Position numbers and translations under genes: made by a program. The notes under the pieces were generated by a model that did no database searches, was not told the origin of the DNA, and was given only the letters and a program-made list of their open reading frames with translations. A stretch of 64,000 bases of DNA, from contig CAZCCP010000006.1 in assembly GCA_964497565.1 (NCBI GenBank), positions 1,449 through 65,448 of the forward strand. Reading direction: 5' to 3'. Shown piece by piece: positions 8,368-53,406 of this stretch (position 1 is the stretch's first letter; every line of letters begins with the position of its first letter). Origin of the DNA: an uncultured Candidatus Saccharibacteria bacterium (GTDB lineage: Bacteria; Patescibacteriota; Saccharimonadia; Saccharimonadales; UBA4665).

Positions 8368-9654
8368 TTAGCGATCTTGAAGCGCCTCAACTCCTGGAAG
8401 CTTACGACCAGCCATTAGTTCTAAGCTAGCACCACCACCAGTTGAAACGTGGTCGAATGCGCCTACAAGGTTACGCTGTTCGATATATCCAACCGTATCG
8501 CCGCCACCAACCAAACTATATGGACGGTGGCCATAATCACCAACAATTGCGTCAATAATGAGTTCCGTACCGCGTGCAAACGGGCCGACTGGCCCCTGTA
8601 AACTCGGCGTCTCTGTCACACCCATAGTACCGTTCCAAACGACGGTATTTGCTAGCTGGATGCCACCAGCGATAAAGGCACCGCTAAATGGACCGATGTC
8701 CAAGATCATTTCGTCATCAGCAATAACGCGGCTCGACTCGGGTGCTTGCTTGGGGTAGTTCTCAACTTCCGCAATCATGTGTGCATCCCAATCGACGATT
8801 CGGGTAGTAGCGTTCTTGTCGAGAGCCGTAGCTATGACGCCATCCTGAGGGATGTAGAAGATAAAGCGCTCTTTTTTGGCCTTTTCACGAGCTTTTGCCA
8901 GGATATCTTTGGCGATTGGCACGTCATTTTCTTCGTATTTGCTTTTGGCGATATCAATACCCTCAGCTGCCAAGAACGTGTTAGCCATAGCGCCGCCAAT
9001 GGCGATAAAGTCAGCAATGTCGATAAAGCGATTCAGGACATCAATCTTATCAGAGATCTTGGCGCCGCCCACAATAGCCATGAGCGGTCGCTCAGGAGTG
9101 TCCATAACACGAGTAATAACATCAACTTCACGTGCCAGCAGCAGTCCCGCCACACTCTCAGGGGCCTGGTGGGTAATAGCCTCTGTGCTCGCGTGAGCAC
9201 GGTGCACAACACCAAAACCATCCTGCACAAACACATCACAATACTGAGCAAGCTGAGCTGCAAAATTGGGATCATTCTTTTCTTCTTCTGGGTGGAAGCG
9301 CAGGTTTTCCAACAGCAAAATCTGACCAGGCTGCAAGCCATCAGCCATCTTCTTGGTTGCTTCACCGATGCAATCAGGCGCCATTTGAACATCGACGCCC
9401 AGCAACTCGCTGAGGCGCTTCGCGACAGGTGCCAAGCTGAGTGCTGCATCTGGCCTACCGTCTGGACGACCAAGATGCGAACATATCACGAGTCGAACGT
9501 TCTTTGCAATCAAGGCCTTTACGGTCTCTAGGGATTGTTTGATGCGGTAGTCATCCGTAATAACGCCGTTCTCGACAGGCACGTTATAGTCTGCGCGCAA
9601 CAGAACCCGCTTGTCCTGCAGCTCGACGTCATTAATTGTCTTTTTTGTAAACAT
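8368..9654 (-). CDS. pgk: Phosphoglycerate kinase
   Basis: RADYNVP, SHLGRP, the GGAKISDKI hinge region and STGGGASLE. Confidence 0.93.
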   Translation of the reverse strand: MFTKKTINDVELQDKRVLLRADYNVPVENGVITDDYRIKQSLETVKALIAKNVRLVICSHLGRPDGRPDAALSLAPVAKRLSELLGVDVQMAPDCIGEATKKMADGLQPGQILLLENLRFHPEEEKNDPNFAAQLAQYCDVFVQDGFGVVHRAHASTEAITHQAPESVAGLLLAREVDVITRVMDTPERPLMAIVGGAKISDKIDVLNRFIDIADFIAIGGAMANTFLAAEGIDIAKSKYEENDVPIAKDILAKAREKAKKERFIFYIPQDGVIATALDKNATTRIVDWDAHMIAEVENYPKQAPESSRVIADDEMILDIGPFSGAFIAGGIQLANTVVWNGTMGVTETPSLQGPVGPFARGTELIIDAIVGDYGHRPYSLVGGGDTVGYIEQRNLVGAFDHVSTGGGASLELMAGRKLPGVEALQDR

Positions 9655-9771
9655 GGCAAACCTCTTATGCTTCTGTCTCGATTATAGATCAGACGAGCTT
9701 ACATCACTAGCGACTTTCCAAAATAAAAACACCCTCGACATAGTGAGGGTGTTTTTAGCAAAAGACGGCTC

Positions 9772-11217
9772 TTATTCGAGAACGCGAACTTTGATGGTAT
9801 CGGTACCGCCGATGAGACCTGGTTGGTGGCCAGAAACGATAACAACACGGTCGCCACTTTCGAAAACGTGCTGTTCCTTAAGCCATTCAGCCAAGTTTGC
9901 ACCAACGTTTTCTACGTCATCGCGCAAGAATGACTTGCTTGCGTACATCAATGCCATCTGGGTAGCAACACGTGGCGTTGAGGTAACAACCACGATTGGC
10001 ATGTTAGGGCGACGAGCAGCGATGCTCAGTGCAGTTGGACCAGACTTGGTCTGTGCAATAATTGCTGCGGCCTTAATCTGCTTAGCAAGCGCCAATGCAC
10101 CAGAGGTGATTGATTCCTGCAAGTTGTCAGTGTTTTCTTCTGCAGTGTAGATTGGGTTAAGCGCAGCGTTGTTCTGAGTGTAGAGAATGATGCGCTTCAT
10201 AGTTGCCACTGCTTCAACAGGATATTTACCGTTGGCAGATTCTTCAGAAAGCATCACGCAGTCAGCGCCCGTAATAACGGCATTCGCGACATCTGAAACT
10301 TCAGCACGAGTTGGATCTGGGTTATCAGTCATGCTCAAGAGCATCTGAGTAGCAACAATACTGATCTTGCCATATTTCTGGCAGAGGCCGAGAATATTGC
10401 GTTGTACAACTGGCACAGCCTCAGGGCTTACTTCGACTGCGAGGTCACCACGAGCAACCATTACACCGTCAGAGACCTTAACAATTGCCTCGAGAGCTGC
10501 ATCTTCGATAGCAGCCTGAGTTTCAATCTTGGCGATAATTTTGGCATCAGAGCCCTTTTCGACCAAGAGCTTGCGCAAGTTGATGATATCGTCAGCTGAT
10601 TGTACGAAGCTCAATGCAACGTAGTCGATGTCTTGTGTTACACCGTAGTCGATATCACGAAGGTCTTTTTCGGTAAGAATGTCGCCACCAAAGTTGGTGT
10701 CAGGAAGGTTCATGCCCTTGCGCTTCAGCAAAAAGCCATCGTTGTCGATCTGCACGGTCAAAACACCTTCTGCAGAAATATCACCAACAATACCGCGCAA
10801 ACGGCCGTCAAAGAGGTAGAGGCGTTCGCCAACTTTCATCTTTTGGCTCAGGTCGTACTGAATAGGAATAATACCGGTAGCTGCGTAATCGCTGCCGTAT
10901 TTGAACTGCAATGCGTCGCCAGCCTTAACGTCAATTTGACCATCGAAGTCACCGAGGCGAATCTTTGGTCCCTGCAAGTCTTGGAGAACTGTTACAGGCT
11001 TACCATATTCAGCACTTGCCTGGCGAACCCACTCGATACGCTGGCCGTGCTCGGCGTGGTCACCGTGGCTAAAGTTAAGACGAAAACCGTTGGCACCGTT
11101 TTTCATCATGTTCAAAATGTGGTCGTAGCTATCACTAGCTGGACCAACGGTAGCAAGGATCTTCGTGCGCTTGAAAACACGTGAAGAAACGTTAGGGGCT
11201 TTATCTGTGTATGTCAT
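9772..11217 (-). CDS. pyk: Pyruvate kinase
   Basis: KILATVGPAS, NFSHG, MVARGDLAVE and the C-terminal regulatory domain. 481 aa. Confidence 0.93.
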   Translation of the reverse strand: MTYTDKAPNVSSRVFKRTKILATVGPASDSYDHILNMMKNGANGFRLNFSHGDHAEHGQRIEWVRQASAEYGKPVTVLQDLQGPKIRLGDFDGQIDVKAGDALQFKYGSDYAATGIIPIQYDLSQKMKVGERLYLFDGRLRGIVGDISAEGVLTVQIDNDGFLLKRKGMNLPDTNFGGDILTEKDLRDIDYGVTQDIDYVALSFVQSADDIINLRKLLVEKGSDAKIIAKIETQAAIEDAALEAIVKVSDGVMVARGDLAVEVSPEAVPVVQRNILGLCQKYGKISIVATQMLLSMTDNPDPTRAEVSDVANAVITGADCVMLSEESANGKYPVEAVATMKRIILYTQNNAALNPIYTAEENTDNLQESITSGALALAKQIKAAAIIAQTKSGPTALSIAARRPNMPIVVVTSTPRVATQMALMYASKSFLRDDVENVGANLAEWLKEQHVFESGDRVVIVSGHQPGLIGGTDTIKVRVLE

Positions 11218-11440
11218 TTTTATTCTCCAAGAATAGATTTGCTTTTGTTGGATATTATTATGCGCCTGGCATACACATAATGCAAACAGGCGCCTAAAAA
11301 TCGGGGTTGAGGTTGCGGGGGTGTGTTTTGTAAAAATGGCGTTATGCCAAACACACCCTCGCGGGCAGAAATCTCGTTGATGAATCGCCTCAGGCGAGTC
11401 AGCTACGCGATAGTTCTACCACCCCTGTACTTCTTGAGCG

Positions 11441-11788
11441 TCAGCCCTTGCGACGCAGCTTGCGCGCGACGAGGACCACGACGATGACGCCGGCGGCGAC
11501 CAGGCCCTTGTTGCGGTGCTTGCGCACCTTGGTGACGGCCAGCTGGCGCTGCTCGGGGTCCTTGGCGGTGTTGACGACGGCGGTGCCGGCGGTCTTGACC
11601 TTGGAACCCGCGCTGCGGACGGTGTCGCTGGTGGCGACCTTCTTGACCGCGGCGACAGTCGTGTCCTTGGCGGACGCGGCGTAGAGGCCGGCGGTAGAAG
11701 CGGCGGTCTTGACCTTGTCGAGCTTGCTCACGTCGGAAACCTCCGTGGTGTCGGTGCCCTCGGCGCCGTTGAGGATGTTGGCGGTCAT
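11441..11788 (-). CDS. High-GC small tail-anchored protein, Ala/Thr/Lys-rich, unknown function
   Basis: ORF track, 115 aa. RBS AAAGGTAGGTAGG upstream. GC-rich third positions. C-terminal TM (LVAAGVIVVVLVA) followed by RKLRRKG. Confidence 0.7.
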   Translation of the reverse strand: MTANILNGAEGTDTTEVSDVSKLDKVKTAASTAGLYAASAKDTTVAAVKKVATSDTVRSAGSKVKTAGTAVVNTAKDPEQRQLAVTKVRKHRNKGLVAAGVIVVVLVARKLRRKG

Positions 11789-12040
11789 GGTGACCTACCT
11801 ACCTTTACATCGAAGTTACAGGAGCTGAGCATGTTCGCTCGATATTCTCAAACGAAAAATCCACCTAAAAGGTGCATACTCAACGATGTATTAAATACTA
11901 TATGAGCTTAAAAATCAAATACATTAGCCAAAATGTAAAACCAAAAGTCCGCGTTAGGTATCTCGGGGAGAGATAACTATCTCTCTACTTAATACGTACG
12001 CGGACTATTCTGGGCAGTCAGCCGGTGTTTCCGGAGGCTA

Positions 12041-12313
12041 TTACGCGGGGCTCATGCCTGGGTTCATACCCGCTTCAGGCCACACATAGGTGATGAGCTG
12101 CTTGCCTTTGGTGCTGAGCCTAATAAGAGAAGACTGGTACCTCGAGCGGCTAAAATAGATCAGCCCTTTGTGATGAAGCGCTTGGATAATATGCGCGAGC
12201 CGTTTCCGATCAAGGCGAAGATATTCAGAAAGTGTGTCCATGTCTTCCTCGCCGTTTTCGTTGACTTGTTGAAGCACTAGCGCGTAGTCTTCTGGTAATT
12301 CGATTGCATGCAT
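12041..12313 (-). CDS. Small winged-helix-like protein, hypothetical
   Basis: ORF track 12041..12334. The internal ATG at 12313 (MHAIELPED) has the RBS AGGGGGA about 8 nt upstream, while the first ATG has none. Confidence 0.6.
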   Translation of the reverse strand: MHAIELPEDYALVLQQVNENGEEDMDTLSEYLRLDRKRLAHIIQALHHKGLIYFSRSRYQSSLIRLSTKGKQLITYVWPEAGMNPGMSPA

Positions 12314-12393
12314 TGTGTTGTTCCCCCTTTGCATTAGGTAACACTACAAGTGTCTCGCCTTATGCTTATAAATTGCTGGGGAAATGCAGAGAT

Positions 12394-12906
12394 CTATTGC
12401 TTGTCAGGGAGAGATTCGACAGCAGCGTGAAACATAGCATTAGTTTTGCGCATAAAGCCGACGATAATCGCCAGTTCTTCGTCATTATATGAGTCAATAA
12501 GTTCGTTGAAAGATTGTTGCAGTGGATCGTACAGTTTGGTAACTTTTTTGCGTGCCTCTACATTATCGATACCACGCACCAAAACACGGCGACGGTCGTT
12601 GGGGTCGGCGTCACGCTGGACGAAACCACGTCGTTCGAGTCGGTCGATCATACCTGTCATGCCACCAGTAGTAATATGGCAGCGCTTAGCTAGCTCGCCT
12701 GCGGTAAACGGACCGTAATCCTGTATGAGGCTCGCGCATTCGAACTCGGCGGCGCTGAGGCCAACATGCTGTGCGATCGCGTGCACCATCAAGACATTGG
12801 TGTTGCCGTTATCCTGTACGGCTTTGTCGAGCTCAGAGATCATCGCCTCACGTTCGGGGCTATCGGATCGTGCTGTATCTAGTATCTTATGTTTTCTTGT
12901 TGACAT
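12394..12906 (-). CDS. MarR-family transcriptional regulator
   Basis: LSAAEFECASLI...TAGELAKRCHITTGGMTGMIDRLERRGFVQRDADPNDRRRVLV is a typical MarR wHTH. It is divergent from an MFS gene. Confidence 0.85.
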   Translation of the reverse strand: MSTRKHKILDTARSDSPEREAMISELDKAVQDNGNTNVLMVHAIAQHVGLSAAEFECASLIQDYGPFTAGELAKRCHITTGGMTGMIDRLERRGFVQRDADPNDRRRVLVRGIDNVEARKKVTKLYDPLQQSFNELIDSYNDEELAIIVGFMRKTNAMFHAAVESLPDKQ

Positions 12907-12923
12907 ATCTTCAGCAAACCTTT

Positions 12924-12940
12924 ATCTTAGTATCTAAGAT
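12924..12940. promoter_or_regulatory. Perfect palindrome in the marR/MFS divergent intergenic region (candidate MarR operator)
   Basis: ATCTTAG-TAT-CTAAGAT. Confidence 0.45.
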
Positions 12941-12998
12941 ATTAAGTAACCTTAATTCTTGTATAGTTAGATAATAACCTAAAACAAAGGACAAATCA

Positions 12999-14690
12999 AT
13001 GGAACACGCCGCCGCGCATAACGCGAGCAAGTTCACTGATAAGCAAAAGAAAATTGCTTTGCTTATTGTGGCCTTCGCATTCGTTATGGACCTGCTCGAC
13101 TCAACTATTGTCAACGTCGCCATTCCTTCTATCCAGGCTAACCTGGGTGCAAGTTACGCCACAATTCAGTGGCTGGTGGCCGGCTACTCACTTACCTTTG
13201 CCCTCCTCCTTATTACTGGTGGACGCATGGGTGACGTGTTTGGCTACAAGAAGATCTTCCTCCTCGGTGTGGGTGGATTTACGATCGCTTCATTATTAAC
13301 AGGTATCGCACCGAACCCAGCATTCCTGGTTGTCGCCCGTCTTGTTCAAGGTGGTATGGCCGCCCTCATGGTGCCGCAGGTGATGTCGCTAATGCAAGTG
13401 ATGTTCAAACCGAGCGAACGCGCAGGCGTCATGGGCATGTTTGGTATGCTTGGTGGTTTGGCCGCCTCACTTGGACCTATCGTTGGTGGTTTGCTTATTA
13501 AGGCAAACATCTTCGGCTGGGACTGGCGCCCAATCTTCCTGATTAACCTTCCCGTTGGTATTTTCGCCCTCATCGCAGGTATGAAATTCCTTCCGGACGG
13601 CAAATCAGAACACCCATTACACATCGACATCAAGGGTACTTTCCTTGTTGTCATCGGATTGAGCTTGCTCGTATTCCCACTTATTGAAGGTCGTGACCTC
13701 GACTGGCCACTCTGGACAATTGCTATGCTGGCTGCATCAATTCCAGCGTTGATGTTCTTCGGTTGGTACGAGACACGCAAGCACAAACGAGACGCTTCGG
13801 CGCTTATCGTGCCGTCACTCTTCAAGATTCGTTCATTCGTCAGTGGTCTATCTCTGAACATTTTGATCGAATCTGTAATGATCGGCTACTTCCTAACCTT
13901 CCAGCTTGCAATGCAGGCAGGCCTTGGCTACAGCCCAATTAAATCTGCGCTTACTGGTGTTCCAACCGCTTTCGGTATGACCATTGGTTTTGCAGTACTT
14001 GGCAACAAGCTTATCCCTAAGTTTGGTCGCTACGTCATTAGCTTTGGTTCAACTGCTTTCGCAGCTGGCCTGGTATACGCAAGTTGGATTCTCAGCCACT
14101 ATGGTTTGGCTGCACATCCATGGCAGTTCATTCCTGGCCTGTTTATCGTTGGCGTTGGTTTGTCACTTGTTATGGCTCCAATCTTCTCAGCTGCACTCCA
14201 AGACGTTGACCCAGGTCACGCCGGCTCAGCATCTGGCATTTTGAATGCCGTACAGCAAGTTGGTGCCGCTATCGGTATCGCCGTTATCGGTGTCATCTTC
14301 TTCGGTCAATTGAATCATGGCGCATACAAGAGCTTTGACGATGTGTCTCCTAAGCTTCGCAAGGATCTCACTGCATTGCACGTTCCCGCACAAGCTCAGA
14401 GCAGTATCATTGCTCAAACTCGTGAATGTTTCCACGACCGCAGTACTGCGGATGATCAAAACATTGTGCCAGAAAGCTGCAAGCAAGCCCAAGCAGCTGC
14501 GCCAACCACTGAAGCCGGCAAGGCTGCCGGTGAAGCAATTTCAGCAAGCGCCAAAAGCGCAAATGCTGCAAACTTTGCACACGGCTTCCGTTCTAGTGTC
14601 ATCTACGTCATCTTGCTACTCGTTGTAGCATGTGGCCTCAGCATGACACTCCCCAAGAAGTTCCGCGTTGTCGAAGAAGGCGCTGTCTAA
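12999..14690 (+). CDS. MFS drug:H+ antiporter, DHA2/EmrB-QacA type (about 14 TMS)
   Basis: 563 aa. LDSTIVNVAIPSI and GGRMGDVFGYKK motifs, with many TM segments. Confidence 0.9.
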   Translation: MEHAAAHNASKFTDKQKKIALLIVAFAFVMDLLDSTIVNVAIPSIQANLGASYATIQWLVAGYSLTFALLLITGGRMGDVFGYKKIFLLGVGGFTIASLLTGIAPNPAFLVVARLVQGGMAALMVPQVMSLMQVMFKPSERAGVMGMFGMLGGLAASLGPIVGGLLIKANIFGWDWRPIFLINLPVGIFALIAGMKFLPDGKSEHPLHIDIKGTFLVVIGLSLLVFPLIEGRDLDWPLWTIAMLAASIPALMFFGWYETRKHKRDASALIVPSLFKIRSFVSGLSLNILIESVMIGYFLTFQLAMQAGLGYSPIKSALTGVPTAFGMTIGFAVLGNKLIPKFGRYVISFGSTAFAAGLVYASWILSHYGLAAHPWQFIPGLFIVGVGLSLVMAPIFSAALQDVDPGHAGSASGILNAVQQVGAAIGIAVIGVIFFGQLNHGAYKSFDDVSPKLRKDLTALHVPAQAQSSIIAQTRECFHDRSTADDQNIVPESCKQAQAAAPTTEAGKAAGEAISASAKSANAANFAHGFRSSVIYVILLLVVACGLSMTLPKKFRVVEEGAV

Positions 14691-14715
14691 GCCCCGAACT
14701 CGTAACAACAAAAGA

Positions 14716-14749
14716 AGAGCACGTTCCCTACTGTGGACGTGCTCTTTTA
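14716..14749 (+). terminator. Intrinsic terminator after the MFS gene
   Basis: AGAGCACGT, loop, ACGTGCTCT, followed by TTTAT. Confidence 0.7.
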
Positions 14750-14866
14750 TATGAACGTATCTGTTGACTCGGCCAATCTAGACATACGGCTTATATATTG
14801 TATACTTATACAGTTCACCTCTAGAGGGTATCTACACTACGCGAAAACCGAAAGGCATCGCCACCA

Positions 14867-15208
14867 ATGGCATATCGTACGTTTGACGTCGACTATCCCA
14901 ATGGCGACATGGACTGCACTGTCCGCGTCCGCACACACGATGCAGATGACGTCAGATTTCTCAGCCTGAACGGTACGGCTATCGACTTCCCTGTCGAGCT
15001 CGAAGATGGTTGGAAAATCATCATCTTCGTTCAGGCCGCACCCCATAGCAGGGCAGCCGAAAGCACAGACCTCCCGTACATCACGGGCGTCACCGAGCTC
15101 GCACCCAAGGAGGAAGATACGCCCAGCGGCGTAGCCGTACGGCATATGCAGCGCATCCGCGCTGTCACGCGAGTTATGCCGATCTATCCGGAAGACAGTT
15201 CCGGCTGA
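14867..15208 (+). CDS. Elevated-GC hypothetical protein (113 aa)
   Basis: In the + frame most third positions are G/C with GAC/GTC/CGC/ATC codons. The overlapping minus ORF 14837..15280 has its third positions on + first positions, which marks it as a shadow. The gene is bracketed by GTTCACCTC (14813-14821) and GAGGTGAAC (15207-15215), like the other cassettes. Confidence 0.55.
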   Translation: MAYRTFDVDYPNGDMDCTVRVRTHDADDVRFLSLNGTAIDFPVELEDGWKIIIFVQAAPHSRAAESTDLPYITGVTELAPKEEDTPSGVAVRHMQRIRAVTRVMPIYPEDSSG

Positions 15209-15282
15209 GGTGAACATAGGGTCGCAGGTGTGATAGCCGAAGCGTTCTGCTTCAATTATCGCGCCTGCACCCTCCACCAAAA

Positions 15283-15678
15283 CTACTTGTCTTTTACTTC
15301 AATAAATCTGCTTGGATCTGTGCGGTAGTATTCCGCCCACTTACTGCCTTCATCAGGGCTTACCGTTTCAACAAAGAGAGCTTTCTTAAAACCGCCGGCC
15401 TTTGCTTCGCGGTTTTTTTGTACGTCTGCGACTTCTTGCGAGGTAATTTCCAGAGAGGCCTTGAGGTCGTCGAGCACCTGCTGGACATCAGCAATTTCTT
15501 TGACCGCTTCCTGTCTGTTGTCTGCTGGAATTTCTTTGGCTTCTTCAATAATTTTTGCTATGAGCGCTGTCACGTGTTGCTCCGGGTCGAGTGTGTGATA
15601 AACAGGCCGCTGACCGGACTGCAGCTGGTCATCAACGATCTTGTCGCGAACGAGCTTGTTGAGAATAAATGTAGGCAT
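15283..15678 (-). CDS. MazG/HisE-like all-alpha nucleoside triphosphate pyrophosphohydrolase
   Basis: N-terminal NKLVRDKIVD and acidic helices (EEAKE...EIADV). 131 aa. Family assignment is from memory of the LVRDKI signature. Confidence 0.7.
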   Translation of the reverse strand: MPTFILNKLVRDKIVDDQLQSGQRPVYHTLDPEQHVTALIAKIIEEAKEIPADNRQEAVKEIADVQQVLDDLKASLEITSQEVADVQKNREAKAGGFKKALFVETVSPDEGSKWAEYYRTDPSRFIEVKDK

Positions 15679-15856
15679 AAGCCCATCCTAGCAGGTGTTC
15701 GTTGTTAGAGCTATTGTAAAACTGACAAGACATTGCCCGTTAAATGCTTGTGAATCGTGCAGCATATACCCTCCTGTTATGGAGTTGGCTATACGCCTGA
15801 CGTCAAAAGGATTAGCGGGGTGCCCTTGAAAGCAGGACACCCCTAGGGTGCGACCG

Positions 15857-17062
15857 TTACCGAACGTATTTCATAAATGTCCGGTATGCGGGTAGCGCGC
15901 AGCTAAGACCGAACACGGCTATCGCGATATAGGCCGCGCCCACTGAGACATGATCGATGAGTGCCCCTACGAGCGGGCCAATCACTGCATACAGCAGCGA
16001 TATGATGCTCGTCATCACCGACAGCTCAGTTGTTCGTGAACTGGGGTCATGGGGTAGTACTTCGTGCAGATAGCTTCTAATGATCACCCCGAGTAGGTTG
16101 ATTGCGTACACGGAAACCAGCATGTATACCAGGACCGGCAACAGGCTCGTCGTCACGCCAGCGCAAAGCGCCAAGCTGGTGATGGCAATGATCGACCACA
16201 GCCAGATGCGCTCGTCATGTTGCTTCTTTTCGCCACGAACCTTGCGGTTTAGCAGCGTCAGGGAGGCGACGATCGCATACTGACAGAAGTAAATCACTCC
16301 GAAATACTTCGGCTCCACGCCAGCGACCTTCAGCCGCGGCTGAAAGATCCAGAACGCCACGAATGTGCAGCAGGAGACCGAAGCGTACAGCAGAATCGCG
16401 TAACGAACTGCCGGGCGATCTCGAAGCATCAGCTTGACGATATCCCGCAAGCTACGGCGTGTTGTGTGTATCTGTATCTGGTGTGTTGGCTTACGAAGCC
16501 CAAACCCCAGGCAGAGACAAACCAGCCATATGAAAGGCTGCACCATGAATGGCACACTAATGCCGCCCAAGTATACCGCCATGCCACCGCCCAGTGTTCC
16601 GACGCAAATCCCCCAGCTTCGGGCTCGACTTGCGGCGGATTCGTAGGCCTCGTATCGAGCGGCTCGCTCCTCGCCATCCTTGATGTATGCCACGCTCGCA
16701 GTTATGAGCGAGCTGCTCGAGTTTGACTGTGCCGAAACATACAACCCGGTTCCAATCAGCGCGAGCTGAAACTGCCAGAAGGTCGTACACAGCATAAAGC
16801 CGCTGCCCTGGGCGAGCTGCAGGAGATTGCCTGTAAAGATGACTCGCCGTACGCCGAACTTGTCGGCGAGGTAGCCGAAAGGCATGTCGCTCAGAACGAA
16901 CACGACGTTCAACGTTGTCTGTAGCCAGAAAATCTGGGTCTGCGTTAGGCCATGAGCATCCGTGTAGTAGGTGTTCATTACCGACGAGCCGAGAAAGATC
17001 TGGCGCACGAAGTCTAGTGCTACGCAAACGCGTGTGTTTCGGCGCTCAATTTCCTCGTCCAT
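15857..17062 (-). CDS. MFS transporter (12 TMS type), intermediate-to-high GC
   Basis: 401 aa with many TM segments and a GYLADKFGVRR-type loop motif. Several shadow ORFs around it indicate raised GC. Confidence 0.8.
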   Translation of the reverse strand: MDEEIERRNTRVCVALDFVRQIFLGSSVMNTYYTDAHGLTQTQIFWLQTTLNVVFVLSDMPFGYLADKFGVRRVIFTGNLLQLAQGSGFMLCTTFWQFQLALIGTGLYVSAQSNSSSSLITASVAYIKDGEERAARYEAYESAASRARSWGICVGTLGGGMAVYLGGISVPFMVQPFIWLVCLCLGFGLRKPTHQIQIHTTRRSLRDIVKLMLRDRPAVRYAILLYASVSCCTFVAFWIFQPRLKVAGVEPKYFGVIYFCQYAIVASLTLLNRKVRGEKKQHDERIWLWSIIAITSLALCAGVTTSLLPVLVYMLVSVYAINLLGVIIRSYLHEVLPHDPSSRTTELSVMTSIISLLYAVIGPLVGALIDHVSVGAAYIAIAVFGLSCALPAYRTFMKYVR

Positions 17063-17156
17063 CAGGTATGGACAACCTCTCTGTGAAAGTGCAAAGTCTT
17101 AGCCCTCTAGTTATACCACAGAGGTCTGCGCAGACGATGCTTGGTGCAAAATAGAA

Positions 17157-17209
17157 CAAAATGAAAAGCACCTACAGGTATTGACCGGTCGGGTCGACAC
17201 CTGTAGGTG
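17157..17209 (-). terminator. Terminator hairpin downstream of the CHAP gene
   Basis: CACCTACAGGT (17169-17179) pairs with ACCTGTAGGTG (17199-17209), with a 19-nt loop. On the minus strand it is followed by GCTTTTCATTTT. Confidence 0.6.
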
Positions 17210-17244
17210 TAATGCTTTTCAGAGCTCGGTGTCGAGCAGGGCCG

Positions 17245-17757
17245 TTACTTCTTGTAGATGAAGAAGTCCGGCTTGGGCGACTTCGACGCGTGCGGACCGA
17301 TGCCAGTGGCACCGATGTCCCGGAACGAAGGTCCCACTGTGTTCCAGCGGACCTCCCTCACTCGGAACGTGGCAGCACCAGCCCTGTAGCTGTAGACGTA
17401 CGCGAAGTGCGTACGGTGCGAAGTCCACACTGCCAGCGCGCCGGCCTTCGGCTTCGTACCGACCTTGTAGCCCCTGTTGAGGGCAGTCGACTTGAAGTTT
17501 TGGGTCCGCACATGGTCGAATTTGGTCCCAGTCCAGTGCTCCCACGCCCAGACGGCGTAGTCAGCGCACCAGCCCTTCGTGAGGGCTGCAGGGCTGTTGC
17601 CGCTGCTGTAGCCCGCGAAGGGATAGGACTTCGTGCTGTAGAACTGAGCGAGGGTCATGCTCTTGGCCTCGGCCAAGGGCGCAACCACGACGCCAGCCGT
17701 CAGCGTGAACACCAGTGCGGTGCCACCGACAGCCAGGCGTTGTTTTACTCGATTCAC
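17245..17757 (-). CDS. Secreted CHAP-domain (NlpC/P60-superfamily) peptidoglycan hydrolase, high GC
   Basis: Cys motif GWCADYAVWAW, His motif HRTHFAYVY and downstream REVRWN. Signal peptide ...VVVAPLAEA/KS. I place the start at the GTG at 17757, preceded by GGAGAA. The ORF track extends to 17823. Confidence 0.8.
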   Translation of the reverse strand: MNRVKQRLAVGGTALVFTLTAGVVVAPLAEAKSMTLAQFYSTKSYPFAGYSSGNSPAALTKGWCADYAVWAWEHWTGTKFDHVRTQNFKSTALNRGYKVGTKPKAGALAVWTSHRTHFAYVYSYRAGAATFRVREVRWNTVGPSFRDIGATGIGPHASKSPKPDFFIYKK

Positions 17758-17831
17758 GAGTTCTCCAGAGGTTCGCGACAATGTCGCACCGAAAACTGTT
17801 TGCCACTGATGTGGCGAAAGCACAGTTGTAC

Positions 17832-17859
17832 ATTATACACCTATTATGTGTATGTCCAA
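17832..17859 (-). promoter_or_regulatory. Promoter of the CHAP gene
   Basis: On the minus strand: TTGGAC, 16 nt, then TGTATAAT. Confidence 0.5.
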
Positions 17860-17875
17860 GGAGCTATCATAAAAT

Positions 17876-18379
17876 CTATGTATCGAGGGAGAACGTATAG
17901 TTCCCGGGCCAACATTCAGTCGGAACATATTCTTTGAAGTCGAGTTTTTTCTGGTATATTGCGGCTAGTGTCGGATTGTGCAATATTTCTTGTTCGGGAT
18001 GAGAGCTGGTGCCCGCCTGGATATACACGAAACCACTCGCACCGCCATACGGGAATGTACTTGGCGGATTGGCATGCAATGTCAACGTGCAGACTTTGTT
18101 GTTGGGGTTATCGTCCCGCCCCTGTCTTTTATAGTGACCGCTGTATCTGTAGGTAACGATGTCTGTCATGGTGGAAAGATCGCTGGAGCTGAAGCCTCGC
18201 GCGTCAAAACCGCGCTCGTTGATAGCAGTCTGTGCGATAGGGCCGTCGAATAGTCGGCTGTTGCTACTGTGTGTTATCGCAGCATGGATCATGGGAGCTA
18301 GCGCAATAAGCGCCGCGAGGGCGCCAAAAATACCCGCGATAGCACCGACTTTCTCCCAGTTGAATGAAGCAGCTTTCAT
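17876..18379 (-). CDS. Hypothetical N-terminally anchored protein
   Basis: ORF track, 167 aa. N-terminal TM VGAIAGIFGALAALIALAPMI. Confidence 0.65.
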   Translation of the reverse strand: MKAASFNWEKVGAIAGIFGALAALIALAPMIHAAITHSSNSRLFDGPIAQTAINERGFDARGFSSSDLSTMTDIVTYRYSGHYKRQGRDDNPNNKVCTLTLHANPPSTFPYGGASGFVYIQAGTSSHPEQEILHNPTLAAIYQKKLDFKEYVPTECWPGNYTFSLDT

Positions 18380-18536
18380 GGGCTCAGTATAACACTAGCG
18401 ATAAAATGTCTCGTGATGCATGCTTCGCGTAACTTACGAAAAGCCCCTCCCCAAGGATGGATCTCACGGAGAATAGTTTTGAGTTTTCACAGAGCAATTT
18501 GAATTTTAAGTATTTTTATTATAAAATACTACTAAT

Positions 18537-19550
18537 ATGGCTGATCGGGAATCGATAATCAACCCCTTTGAACAAGAGGGGATACTCAACACATTTGACG
18601 AGATACAAGCTGAGTCATTCTTTGCTACGCCAGAACTGCGAAGCGCTTTTTTACGCGACCTTACGTTCGAAGACTATACGAATTTCCTAACACTTATCAA
18701 TGAATCGTTTCAATTTGACGTAAGCGAGGTGCTTGACCCTACGAACACTAGTCAACATATGATCATAAGAAGCGATACAAACCAGGAGACGGGCAAGGTC
18801 CAAGATAAATGGCCGATATACATTGCACCAGGCCATGAACACAGGCCCTTACTACTTAATGAAGCGTTCACCGTCGCACAAGAGTTAGAAGATGTCGAAC
18901 AGGCAGCTACGCTATTGGGGCTATCGCTAAGTATGGTTCATCCTTTTAATGATGGTAACGGCCGTACAAGTAGAATTTTGTATAGCCTACTGACGCATGG
19001 CTATGATGGATCAAGTGCAGATAGACAATATTTTACTGAGCTCAGTAGTCACGAAGGAAGAGAGATAGTCTACTTTTCCCAAGAAGCTGCTAATCTACCT
19101 GGTTTGTTCGTAGGACGCGAGCTACGAACAAAGCAACTTTACGATGAGCCAAAGCAGTTGATCGATTTGCAACCACGAAAAGGCGACAGTTGGAAGTGGA
19201 GAACACGAGAGTTCCTGCTTGGTAAAACAGGCGTTGACCTCATGCTTCAAGAAGGCTACTTTGGCTTACCACTACTCATGGAAAAAGTGAAAGAAGACGG
19301 CCGTCGGCTTCAAGACTGCAGCGCTGTCACAATAAGCGTATCAGGGCAAACAATACAAAGGCTTGACATAGGAGAAGTCTACGCACGACCCAAAGACATA
19401 GACCAGCGTGCAACCACAGCCAGACATACACAACTCAAGCTTGAATATATACGCACTGTCATTGATTGTTTTCGGCCAGAAACACCAGACCCACTAATCA
19501 GTTCCGACGAAATCACTCGTGTATACGCTTCGCCCACAAAGAATGCTTAG
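18537..19550 (+). CDS. Fic/DOC-family protein (putative AMPylase)
   Basis: Canonical Fic motif HPFNDGNGRTSR, matching HxFx(D/E)GNGRxxR. Confidence 0.85.
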   Translation: MADRESIINPFEQEGILNTFDEIQAESFFATPELRSAFLRDLTFEDYTNFLTLINESFQFDVSEVLDPTNTSQHMIIRSDTNQETGKVQDKWPIYIAPGHEHRPLLLNEAFTVAQELEDVEQAATLLGLSLSMVHPFNDGNGRTSRILYSLLTHGYDGSSADRQYFTELSSHEGREIVYFSQEAANLPGLFVGRELRTKQLYDEPKQLIDLQPRKGDSWKWRTREFLLGKTGVDLMLQEGYFGLPLLMEKVKEDGRRLQDCSAVTISVSGQTIQRLDIGEVYARPKDIDQRATTARHTQLKLEYIRTVIDCFRPETPDPLISSDEITRVYASPTKNA

Positions 19551-19803
19551 TACAGGACTGCAGCGTAGTCGATTCTTTTATAAACAAGAAAAAAGCCCCA
19601 AGCGTACGCTTGAGACTCTTTTCTTGGTGAACCTACCCGCCCAGTTTTGGAAGACCTTTTGGCCTAGTCTGGAATTATTGCATGACAACTTAATCATGTT
19701 GGGTGTGTCCGACCACGAACTAATGCTGGAGGGTGGCGCTAATGTTGGCGTGGCTTCGGCTCGTGCATATAGAGAAGGAATCTAGTAGCAGACGGATTCA
19801 ACC

Positions 19804-21105
19804 CTATTTCTTAAGAGACACATTGAGTAGGGCTTTGGCGGTGGCATCTAATAGAAGCTCGAACTTGTTGTAGTCAGCCTTTGTGTCAACTAATGGATGA
19901 AAAAGCACCATAGCGATTTCGCGTTTTTCGTTGTCATAATATTTAATCTCCATTGCATCCCTTGTGAGAATCTCATGGTCTTCGTGCATTCGGACTATAA
20001 ATCGTCCCATCTCTTTTTGTGACTCGACGTATTCGTCGCCAATCAGTATGCGAAACGCGTCCCATTTTTGCATGGCATCAACTTTAGCATTTACTTCAGT
20101 ATCGCTTAGCTTAGCCTTTTTCTCTCTAATGACATTTGTATAACTAGCTTCTGACTCGTGCGCGACATAATTACGCTTTCGTTTTATCCACTTTATCCAC
20201 TTATTCATTGTTAATTCTGAATATAGAGCATAAAGATCATCATTCTTTGTTTTTAACTGCTCCAAGAACTTTTCATGTTCTATGTTAGGACGAACGTCCT
20301 TCCCACTTATACTAAAGAGCTCAGTGAGTAATCTTCCAATGATGTCGAATGAGCCAGAAAATAAGAAGTAGAGGTTGCTAAGATGGTAATTAAGCTCAAA
20401 TGAATAATCGTAAAAACTATCATAACCATAGGAGTCTTTAATCTTGTAGTTACGCTCAGCGTAATGCTTTCTTTGAACTAGAGACAGTATGGTTTCTTCA
20501 CAATACCTTATTTGTATGGCTTTATGTTGCAGGGCTCGGACGAAACTCATGTGCGTATTCGTGTAACCTAGTTCTCTAGGTGCTACGTTATTCAGATTCC
20601 GAAGGTTATCTAGAAGCGGTTTAGTTTCGATATATTTCGAGAACCAAGTCGCGTTCCATACTGGCTGGTTAAAATCCCATGGTACATTCTTTCCTGTTAC
20701 GTATGCTTCTATCTCGTTTTCAAGCTGTGCCGTAGTTTCAGCGTACTGGAACGGTTTACCAGTTTTGTAGAGATCGGCTATAAGTTTTAGATCATCGCTA
20801 TAAATAAGGTCAATATTATTCGAGTGAGCATAACTCAGTATTGGATCTACACCCTTATTGAGATCGTCAAATACGCTGTATCTATACTTTTCTTGGTTAG
20901 AAGCAAGACTTTCAGTGTTCGCAACTCTTATCTCGATTTCAAAATCAGCACCTATGTCGCTAACATAGTGCTTTAATATCTCTAGTTTTTGCATTAAAGA
21001 GTACAAGTAGCTCTCATTAGTATCCAGCAGCATTACTCTAAAAATAGCATTAGGTGCAGGATGTATGTTTAACTCTGGGAAGGTCGTACCATTTATTGTT
21101 GGCAT
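19804..21105 (-). CDS. Hypothetical 433-aa protein with a candidate HEPN Rx4H motif
   Basis: ORF track 19804..21108, which starts at a GTG. The ATG at 21105 follows the RBS GAGGAG. C-terminal region KRKRNYVAHESEAS contains R-x4-H. AT-rich codon usage. Confidence 0.75.
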   Translation of the reverse strand: MPTINGTTFPELNIHPAPNAIFRVMLLDTNESYLYSLMQKLEILKHYVSDIGADFEIEIRVANTESLASNQEKYRYSVFDDLNKGVDPILSYAHSNNIDLIYSDDLKLIADLYKTGKPFQYAETTAQLENEIEAYVTGKNVPWDFNQPVWNATWFSKYIETKPLLDNLRNLNNVAPRELGYTNTHMSFVRALQHKAIQIRYCEETILSLVQRKHYAERNYKIKDSYGYDSFYDYSFELNYHLSNLYFLFSGSFDIIGRLLTELFSISGKDVRPNIEHEKFLEQLKTKNDDLYALYSELTMNKWIKWIKRKRNYVAHESEASYTNVIREKKAKLSDTEVNAKVDAMQKWDAFRILIGDEYVESQKEMGRFIVRMHEDHEILTRDAMEIKYYDNEKREIAMVLFHPLVDTKADYNKFELLLDATAKALLNVSLKK

Positions 21106-53380: not shown

Positions 53381-53406
53381 TCGCAACTACATGTCATTCA
53401 CCTCTT

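Follow-up and report, generated by a model that had tools for sequence, protein, structure and literature searches.

To our knowledge, pairing between the 5' and 3' untranslated regions (UTRs) within a single molecule has been shown in just a handful of bacterial mRNAs. The closest described system is the hbs mRNA of Bacillus subtilis, in which a 14-bp helix between the 5'UTR and the 3'UTR modulates cleavage by RNase Y and access of RNase J (Braun, Durand and Condon, 2017, PMC5737220). Another is the icaR mRNA of Staphylococcus aureus, whose 3'UTR pairs with the Shine-Dalgarno (SD) region (Ruiz de los Mozos et al., 2013, PMC3868564). We have analyzed three genes of raised GC, named here ORF1, ORF2 and ORF3 (ORF, open reading frame), located in a stretch of 64,000 nucleotides (the window) of an uncultured Candidatus Saccharibacteria bacterium. 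The window corresponds to C6:1449-65448 of an assembly of 1.147 Mb in 31 contigs with a GC of 0.50. The original prediction had described them as isolated single-gene cassettes sharing a promoter, inverted-repeat and hairpin layout, and had suggested that the genome packages or acquires foreign genes in this way. Our analysis indicates that the three genes are inherited vertically, lineage-restricted and fast-evolving and are not recent foreign imports. We give an even chance to the reading that they are self-contained units in which the two ends of the mRNA pair, in the manner of hbs and icaR.

As in hbs and icaR, complementary segments (the arms) are found before the start codon and at or after the stop codon of the same gene (duplex energies are given in the table). 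The likeness to hbs extends to what would be one short monocistronic mRNA, to an organism with RNase Y and RNase J and no RNase E, and to a predicted control of endonuclease and 5'-exonuclease access. Actually, RNase J and RNase Y are encoded with matches above the curated cut-offs while RNase E/G is absent, which is the Bacillus-type set of decay enzymes. In hbs the helix has 14 bp, was shown experimentally and belongs to one housekeeping gene, whereas the helices found here are of 7-16 bp, are predicted and belong to a whole class of orphan genes rich in GC at the third codon position (GC3), with the addition of unusually long terminal hairpins and coding sequences (CDSs) of biased composition. 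The likeness to icaR lies in the pairs of SD/anti-SD-like type found in ORF2 and in P4, a paralog located elsewhere in the window. However, the anti-SD-like UCCCCUG of that 3'UTR occludes the genuine SD, with an RNase III site formed as a result, and in our case the 5' arm is upstream of the gene's own SD and separate from it, the SD-like word of ORF2 being at the 3' end.

The six repeat words quoted in the original prediction were all found in place by direct check of the sequence, as were its words for the ORF1 hairpin and the ORF3 promoter, and P4 does have the same TTCACCTC/GAGGTGAA pair as ORF2 (at 53397 and 54384). The raised composition also held, with GC and GC3 of 0.68 and 0.94 (ORF1), 0.58 and 0.66 (ORF2) and 0.62 and 0.80 (ORF3), over a genome baseline of 0.50 and a mean of 0.53. 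The downstream hairpins are real and strong, and no shuffled sequence equals any of the three. The claim of a same promoter stood only in part: ORF3 has the TGTATAAT box, ORF2 has TGTATACT with TAGACA 16 nt upstream, and ORF1 has a conserved TATAGT only, with no clear -35. Table 1 collects the features.

Table 1. Features of the three units, with the repeat, hairpin and promoter words of the original prediction and the gene missing from the window beside ORF3. Coordinates are those of the window unless a contig is named; G002 and L022 are explained in the text.
Feature	Coordinates	Strand	Description
ORF1 CDS	11441..11788	-	115 aa, tail-anchored; C-terminal transmembrane segment VAAGVIVVVLVA followed by RKLRRKG; GC3 0.94
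ORF1 5' arm	11812..11824	-	sense CUCCUGUAACUUC; 24-36 nt before ATG
ORF1 3' arm	11422..11433	-	sense GAAGUACAGGGG; 8-19 nt past stop; duplex -18.2 kcal/mol
ORF1 repeat words	11424-11433 / 11812-11822		CCTGTACTTC / GAAGTTACAGG
ORF1 stable 3' hairpin	11315..11362	-	stem GGGUGUGUUU / AAACACACCC, inner GGC/GCC stem; -24.1 kcal/mol, z -4.7
ORF1 hairpin words	11319 / 11349		GGGTGTGTTT / AAACACACCC
ORF1 leader hairpin	11857..11874	-	CACCU-UUU-AGGUG GAUUUUU; small, terminator-like, with U5
ORF2 promoter-like site	14779..14806	+	TAGACA, 16 nt, TATACT (TGTATACT)
ORF2 5' arm	14813..14821	+	GUUCACCUC; starts 7 nt past -10 box
ORF2 CDS	14867..15208	+	113-aa orphan; GC3 0.66
ORF2 3' arm	15207..15215	+	GAGGUGAAC; overlaps stop codon; exact 9-mer complement of 5' arm; duplex -19.7 kcal/mol
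ORF2 repeat words	14813-14821 / 15207-15215		GTTCACCTC / GAGGTGAAC
ORF2 long 3' hairpin	15218..15273	+	-39.2 kcal/mol, z -5.8
ORF3 promoter	17832..17859	-	TTGGAC, 16 nt, TATAAT (as TGTATAAT)
ORF3 promoter words	17832-17839 / 17854-17859	-	TGTATAAT / TTGGAC; 16 nt counted to the TATAAT hexamer
ORF3 5' arm	17784..17793	-	sense UUCGGUGCGA; overlaps base of local 5'UTR hairpin GCGAC-AUU-GUCGC; arm duplex -16.3 kcal/mol
ORF3 CDS	17245..17757	-	secreted CHAP-domain hydrolase; 170 aa; GTG start; signal peptide; invariant Cys and His
ORF3 3' arm	17225..17235	-	sense UCGACACCGAG, core CACCGAG
ORF3 repeat words	17226-17235 / 17784-17792		TCGGTGTCGA / TCGCACCGA
ORF3 terminator	17162..17221	-	12-bp stem, inner hairpin, A-tract and U-tract flanks; -33.8 kcal/mol, z -7.8
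Extra 265-aa gene	L016:15294-16290 (G002); L022:7236-8033		absent at window ~17063-17160

We compared the window's own genome (G000) with a genome of the same genus (G002), a metagenomic contig of 1.27 Mb (L020) and a contig of 14.9 kb (L022), among others. The suspicion that the ORFs might be non-coding or antisense artefacts can be set aside, the three of them being real genes. ORF1 has the coding signature GC3 > GC1 > GC2 and intact orthologues in two other genomes (G002 and L020). ORF2 has four orthologues with intact frames of 103-113 aa, which, read in the frame of the gene, diverge most at codon position 3, a pattern that the antisense frame lacks. Neither of these two gave a match in Pfam (E up to 5) or PHROGs, and the AlphaFold2 model of ORF2 has a pLDDT (predicted local distance difference test) of 43. 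ORF3 matches the CHAP family (PF05257) with 28.1 bits over a cut-off of 26, and C64 and H117 are invariant in 13 homologues. Its proposed GTG start at 17757 agrees with a GGAG Shine-Dalgarno and with homologues of 167-172 aa. A profile search of the PDB with the CHAP protein produced marginal ydhK matches only, and Rfam over window positions 9000-20000 sub-threshold chance matches only.

The layout is recurrent in a class of genes of this genome. A genome scan for GC3 >= 0.70 and GC3 > GC1 > GC2, as the original prediction had proposed, found 83 convincing ORFs (~7% of genes) with GC3 up to 0.95. For each of them, with refined start codons, we determined the best Watson-Crick/G.U helix between the 5'UTR (80 nt) and the 3' region (62 nt) of that same gene, and used as a control mismatched 5'/3' pairs from the same class. 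A score of at least 22 was reached by 16.9% of the own pairs and 5.5% of the mismatched ones (Mann-Whitney p=0.0007). The native genes had no such enrichment (4.7% vs. 5.3%, p=0.37), and when the window's contig was removed the values for the high-GC3 genes were 14.9% and 5.3% (p=0.010). Arm sequences differ gene by gene across the class, as expected where complementarity alone matters. Promoter boxes were enriched too, a perfect TGnTATAAT being present upstream of 12% of the high-GC3 class vs. 4.4% (p=0.006); among the 37 copies of TGTATAAT in the genome, 32% precede DNA of at least 0.58 GC vs. 6% of background. For the high-GC class, a layout of own promoter, 5'UTR arm, GC-rich CDS, second arm on the stop codon or shortly behind it and long hairpin is supported. 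Many of the high-GC3 ORFs occur in clusters, among them C1:6-30 kb, C2:96-99 kb and C2:146-149 kb, and the majority resemble orphan, membrane or secreted proteins.

Conservation, a test on the CHAP family and the class test together appear to raise the arms above chance. ORF2 has good support and ORF1 moderate support; ORF3, the weakest case, has it at the family level only. In ORF2, CAGTTCACCTC of the 5' arm is invariant in 4/4 orthologues with a neighbouring 5' flank that is 50% diverged, and CTGAGGTGAA(C/T) of the 3' arm is retained in the same four, the other flank sequence being 50-61% diverged. In every species the 5' arm starts 7 nt beyond the -10 box, where the transcript is predicted to begin, and the orthologues have TAGAAT at an equal distance from the arm. 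The 3' arm is unchanged in L020 and L022, and in G002 it ends in ..AAU by a single C>U that keeps a G.U pair. The L020 orthologue (L020:12806-13117, the same as L005:6806-7117) has a premature TAA six codons (18 nt) before the ancestral TGA; despite this early stop it still has the GAGGTGAAC word and the hairpin, and its helix is longer, at 16 bp (-26.8 kcal/mol). The helix has 9 bp in G000, and G002 and L022 lengthen it in another register than L020. The orthologues have a different 3' hairpin, in which a compensatory change (GAGUGG/CCACUC to GAAUGG/CCAUUC) is found.

Both arms of ORF1 are present in three species, with duplexes of -15.6 to -18.2 kcal/mol, and in the 5'UTR alignment the 5' arm appears as a conserved block flanked by variable positions. 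Where the species differ by G/A, the pair is U.G in one and U-A in another. In L020 the middle of the helix is interrupted by a U>C change and, in the partner arm, a CA insertion, so that two helices remain, of 5 and 6 bp. The stable 3' hairpin, which has no U-run directly behind, is conserved in G002 and L020.

For ORF3 we collected the CHAP gene and its flanks from ten loci in total. The sole block common to the five 5'UTRs compared is UUCGGUGCG, and its invariant UUCGGUG has a full Watson-Crick/G.U partner in the 3'UTR at 5/5 of the loci first tested (CACCGAA, CACCGAG, CACCGGA or UGCCGAA). The partners are located 3-27 nt past the stop in contexts that are mutually unalignable, and the joint shuffle probability for the five loci was 5e-4, or ~2e-3 allowing for three candidate 7-mers. 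A CACCGAA-type motif was found in 7/10 CHAP loci at a varying distance to the stop, and the best 5'/3' helix of the ten loci compared with shuffles gave Fisher p values of 0.002-0.008. We had considered the ORF3 repeat as mere part of the local hairpin, a view revised once the CACCGAA-type partner appeared in unalignable 3'UTRs elsewhere. The promoter is near-identical in G002, L020, L022 and L026, and all CHAP loci share a conserved terminator, whose wobble changes suit an RNA of the minus strand, i.e., the mRNA.

The substitutions of wobble type found in the arms are informative about the strand. In all six (6/6) pairing is kept on the mRNA-sense strand only, and the other strand would have C.A mismatches; they are the C>U of ORF2 in G002, the G/A of ORF1, and in ORF3 one in G000, one in L020 and two in L007. 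Because these changes are strand-specific, a role at the RNA level on the coding strand is favoured over one at the DNA level.

The reading to which we give even chances would work as follows. The three ORFs belong to a class of ~80 GC3-rich genes, each of which would be its own transcription unit, with a sigma-70-type promoter (often TGTATAAT-like), a 5'UTR carrying a short gene-specific segment, a coding region of high GC3, a complementary segment at or just past the stop codon and a very stable terminal hairpin. The arms would pair inside the mRNA and close the transcript upon itself. This pairing, together with the 3' hairpin and a coding region poor in A and U, may limit the attack by RNase Y and RNase J, or may couple decay to translation. 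We infer the transcript ends, the pairing of the arms, its effect on stability or translation and the reason for the selection on GC3. If true for the whole class, pairing between 5' and 3' ends would be a general design principle in an organism with RNase Y and RNase J, with dozens of natural test cases. It is plausible that the CHAP hydrolase is a tool for the host cell wall, whose regulation would matter for an epibiont lifestyle. The match to RNase J (G000:C5:2701-4368, 458.8 bits) has one in-frame TAA within its open-frame stretch, which could be outside the gene, a sequencing error or a recoding event.

A bolder version, possible but in our opinion doubtful, is that selection acts mainly on the mRNA and not on the protein, the ~80 genes being a dedicated class of self-closing, nuclease-resistant mRNAs. 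GC3 of 0.8-0.95 kept across species-level divergence, gene-specific end pairing, giant terminal hairpins and near-consensus promoters would all be features of such messengers, and the proteins encoded, fast-evolving and located at the surface or secreted, would serve at the interface with the host. Taken to its extreme, codon usage would be host-like since the transcripts or the genes are expressed inside a high-GC actinobacterial host, which is very unlikely.

Several points weigh against the pairing of mRNA ends, and some of them would fit a different explanation, unlikely in our view, namely that the short repeats are coincidental and that constraints unrelated to pairing preserve the conserved words. 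The 5' word could belong to the promoter or to the initial transcribed region, the 3' word to a terminator module or to the promoter of a neighbour, and UUCGGUG could be kept simply as the base of a local 5'UTR hairpin. To begin with, the transcription start sites, the 3' ends and the arm pairing itself are predictions. When complementarity between the 70-nt 5' flank and the 40-nt 3' flank was scored over the 1162 ORFs of the genome (crude calls), the ORF1 score of 8 was reached by 6.1% of them, the 9 of ORF2 by 2.2% and the 7 of ORF3 by 19.5%. We used this contiguous-helix score because RNAduplex over long windows gave inflated, uninformative energies. Shuffling the 3'UTRs gave P ~0.02 for ORF2, 0.13-0.16 for the ungapped helix of ORF1 and 0.33-0.42 for the 7-bp core of ORF3. 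Within G000 alone, therefore, only the ORF2 repeat stands out, marginally, and those of ORF1 and ORF3 are individually not significant. The excess at the class level is modest, ~10-15% of genes above the control. The 3' arm of ORF1 sits in a block of 155 nt, ~92% conserved overall, between ORF1 and the pyruvate kinase gene, and its conservation is uninformative because the whole block is conserved. The GGUG of the ORF2 3' arm can pair with the CACC at 15275-15278 behind the hairpin, a local alternative to the long-range pairing.

In G000 the helix of ORF3 is the weakest of the CHAP series. The four further CHAP loci gave a mixed result: L026 fits the motif, in L025 the partner is shifted (an 8-bp helix, GGUGCGGC/GCCGCACC), in L023 the helix is bulged, and in L024 the motif is missing and there is another 10-bp 5'/3' helix instead (UGCUUCUUGC/GCAAGAAGCA). 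A partner that is shifted, bulged or replaced leaves room for post-hoc fitting. Besides, the long-range pairing would compete with the local 5'UTR hairpin, which its 5' arm overlaps and whose covariation support is better (GCGAC/GUCGC, GCGGAU/AUCCGC, GCGGC/GCCGU and GCGGCCC/GGGCUGC). No clean double compensatory change was seen in the arms among the orthologues compared, most arm positions being invariant, and the number of orthologue lineages is small, with some dependence among them. On the other hand, coincidence does not predict an own-versus-mismatched enrichment specific to high-GC genes, nor that the ORF2 arms stay conserved amid diverged flanks, with a helix lengthened differently among lineages, nor that the CHAP 3'UTR motif recurs at varying distances in unalignable contexts, nor that the wobble changes are all compatible with the sense strand only.

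A role in translation, limited to ORF2 and P4, appears improbable. In this explanation the GAGGUGA at the stop codon is SD-like and holds or recycles terminating ribosomes, and the UUCACCUC at the 5' end is a titrating mimic of the anti-SD. GAGGUGA agrees with the canonical SD consensus, no downstream gene requires it as an SD, and the same word pair occurs in ORF2 and P4, two apparently unrelated genes. Nevertheless, the genome has no excess of TTCACCTC (28 copies vs. 35 expected), the arms of the other units are unrelated in sequence, and the 3' end of the 16S, with the anti-SD sequence, is missing from the assembly.

The proposal that the genes are foreign and that the layout captures or packages them was not borne out. 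In G002 the three ORFs are on one contig with the same order and orientation as in G000, in L020 they recur together with gene insertions and a rearranged order, and L022 also carries orthologues. The identities between G000 and G002 are 39%, 42% and 55% for ORF1, ORF2 and ORF3 vs. 67-91% for the neighbours (MarR 67, MFS-563 75, MFS-401 81 and a 167-aa protein 91). Searches of 5.8 billion proteins, 1.84 billion representatives, the GTDB genomes and phages found no homologue beyond the lineage. Specifically, a word-indexed search of the 5.8-billion-protein index with ORF1 and ORF2 returned the query itself only; 13 members of the CHAP family are in that index and 5 representatives in the set of 1.84 billion, and the members examined all have a GC of ~0.60 within a background of ~0.48. 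A GTDB-wide scan with the CHAP alignment found G002 only, tblastn of CHAP against phages gave no match, and scans of metagenomes with the ORF2 alignment and with a 21-nt pattern of the ORF1 flank found nothing.

Composition tells the same story. GC3 is held across orthologues, at 0.94-0.96 in ORF1 at ~40% identity and at 0.65-0.69 in ORF2, and because the orthologues keep it while the proteins diverge, the high GC3 is an inherited and maintained property. For ORF1 this speaks against a foreign origin, since an ameliorating foreign gene would drift towards the composition of its host. The three codon positions of ORF1 diverge nearly alike (0.36, 0.40 and 0.32), and its flanks much less (0.08-0.23). 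The promoter and 5'UTR of ORF3 are likewise more conserved than the CDS, which is not so for ORF2. All this is a caution against equating a local high GC with horizontal transfer, a GC3 of ~0.95 being inherited and maintained in a 50%-GC genome with proteins that diverge almost freely, and it raises the question of what selects the composition of such loci in episymbiotic bacteria of reduced genome.

Horizontal acquisition of high-GC genes, for instance from actinobacterial hosts or phages, is accordingly very improbable, in spite of an atypical composition (GC3 of 0.66-0.94 vs. 0.53), of a patchy distribution in the family (matches in 2-5/41 relatives) and of whole units that are present or absent between relatives, such as an extra 265-aa gene beside CHAP in G002 and L022. 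Like horizontally acquired islets, the units are small, patchy and raised in GC and GC3; unlike them, they have syntenic orthologues, no donor homologues, no amelioration down to ~40% protein identity and conserved regulatory flanks of native GC. They resemble integron cassettes with their attC sites in being single-gene units with imperfect inverted repeats and whole-unit presence or absence. However, cassettes are promoterless, have one 3' attC with conserved R and L boxes and are found beside an integrase, and here each unit has its own promoter, gene-specific arms without a common core around the CDS and a fixed syntenic position; neither an integrase nor direct repeats were noticed at the units, although no search aimed at integrases was made. 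A mobile element flanked by terminal inverted repeats (a miniature inverted-repeat transposable element or one like an insertion sequence) does not fit either, the arms being gene-specific, TTCACCTC no commoner than expected and the loci syntenic in G002, L020 and L022.

The extra gene is of high GC, has a perfect TGCTATAAT promoter and is located between MFS-401 and CHAP in G002, L022 and L026, and not in G000. L020 keeps ~25 nt of its 3' end (GTCCACTTCCGGATGCC), which points to loss of the unit by deletion and not to insertion.

Just as improbable is a function at the DNA level, in which the repeats are crossover sites for inversion against a promoter (phase variation) or for the exchange of allelic cassettes between conserved flanks: the repeats do enclose the variable part exactly, the promoter and terminator beyond them being conserved, and CDSs that evolve much faster than their flanks are the pattern of antigenic-variation loci, but arms of just 7-12 bp that are gene-specific could not all be recognised by one recombinase, substitutions turn exact DNA repeats into pairs that are G.U in RNA only, the orientation is the same in all assemblies (G000, G002, L020 and L022) and the orthologous CDSs are still homologous, not exchanged for unrelated sequence.

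Some other observations were made at these loci. The spacer of the CHAP promoter contains a palindrome (ATACAC-ATAATAG-GTGTAT) overlapping the -10 box and identical in four genomes, which could be an operator. The start of the CHAP 5'UTR (window 17815-17825; GUGCUUUC, or GUGCUUCUU in other lineages) complements the A-rich strand just before the terminator stem (17205-17215; GAAAAGCAC / CAAGAAGC). This pairing is a possible second 5'/3' helix and covaries across L021, L024 and L025. Downstream of CHAP, the MFS-401 transporter (15857-17062 and 17063-17140) has a moderately raised GC3 of 0.68, its own TGGTATAAC box and a conserved leader; it is 81% identical in G002, showing that raised GC3 is not always tied to fast protein evolution.

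At the other end, the ORF1 leader (11857-11905, minus strand) has the conserved TATAGT box followed ~25 nt later by the terminator-like hairpin and U5. The stem of this hairpin is changed in sequence yet retained in G002 and L020 (CACCCA...UGGGUG), and it could act as an attenuator or as the terminator for the helix-turn-helix gene upstream. The block from the ORF1 stop to the start of pyruvate kinase (11285-11440) is ~92% identical in G002 and well conserved in L020, far above the ORF1 CDS. It holds the hairpin of -24 kcal/mol and a small GCC-UGA-GGC hairpin, has no Rfam match and could be a pyruvate kinase leader, a promoter element or a small RNA. Next to the pyruvate kinase gene of G002, between it and phosphoglycerate kinase, there is an additional high-GC ORF (L016:3461-3925, GC ~0.60) that G000 does not have.

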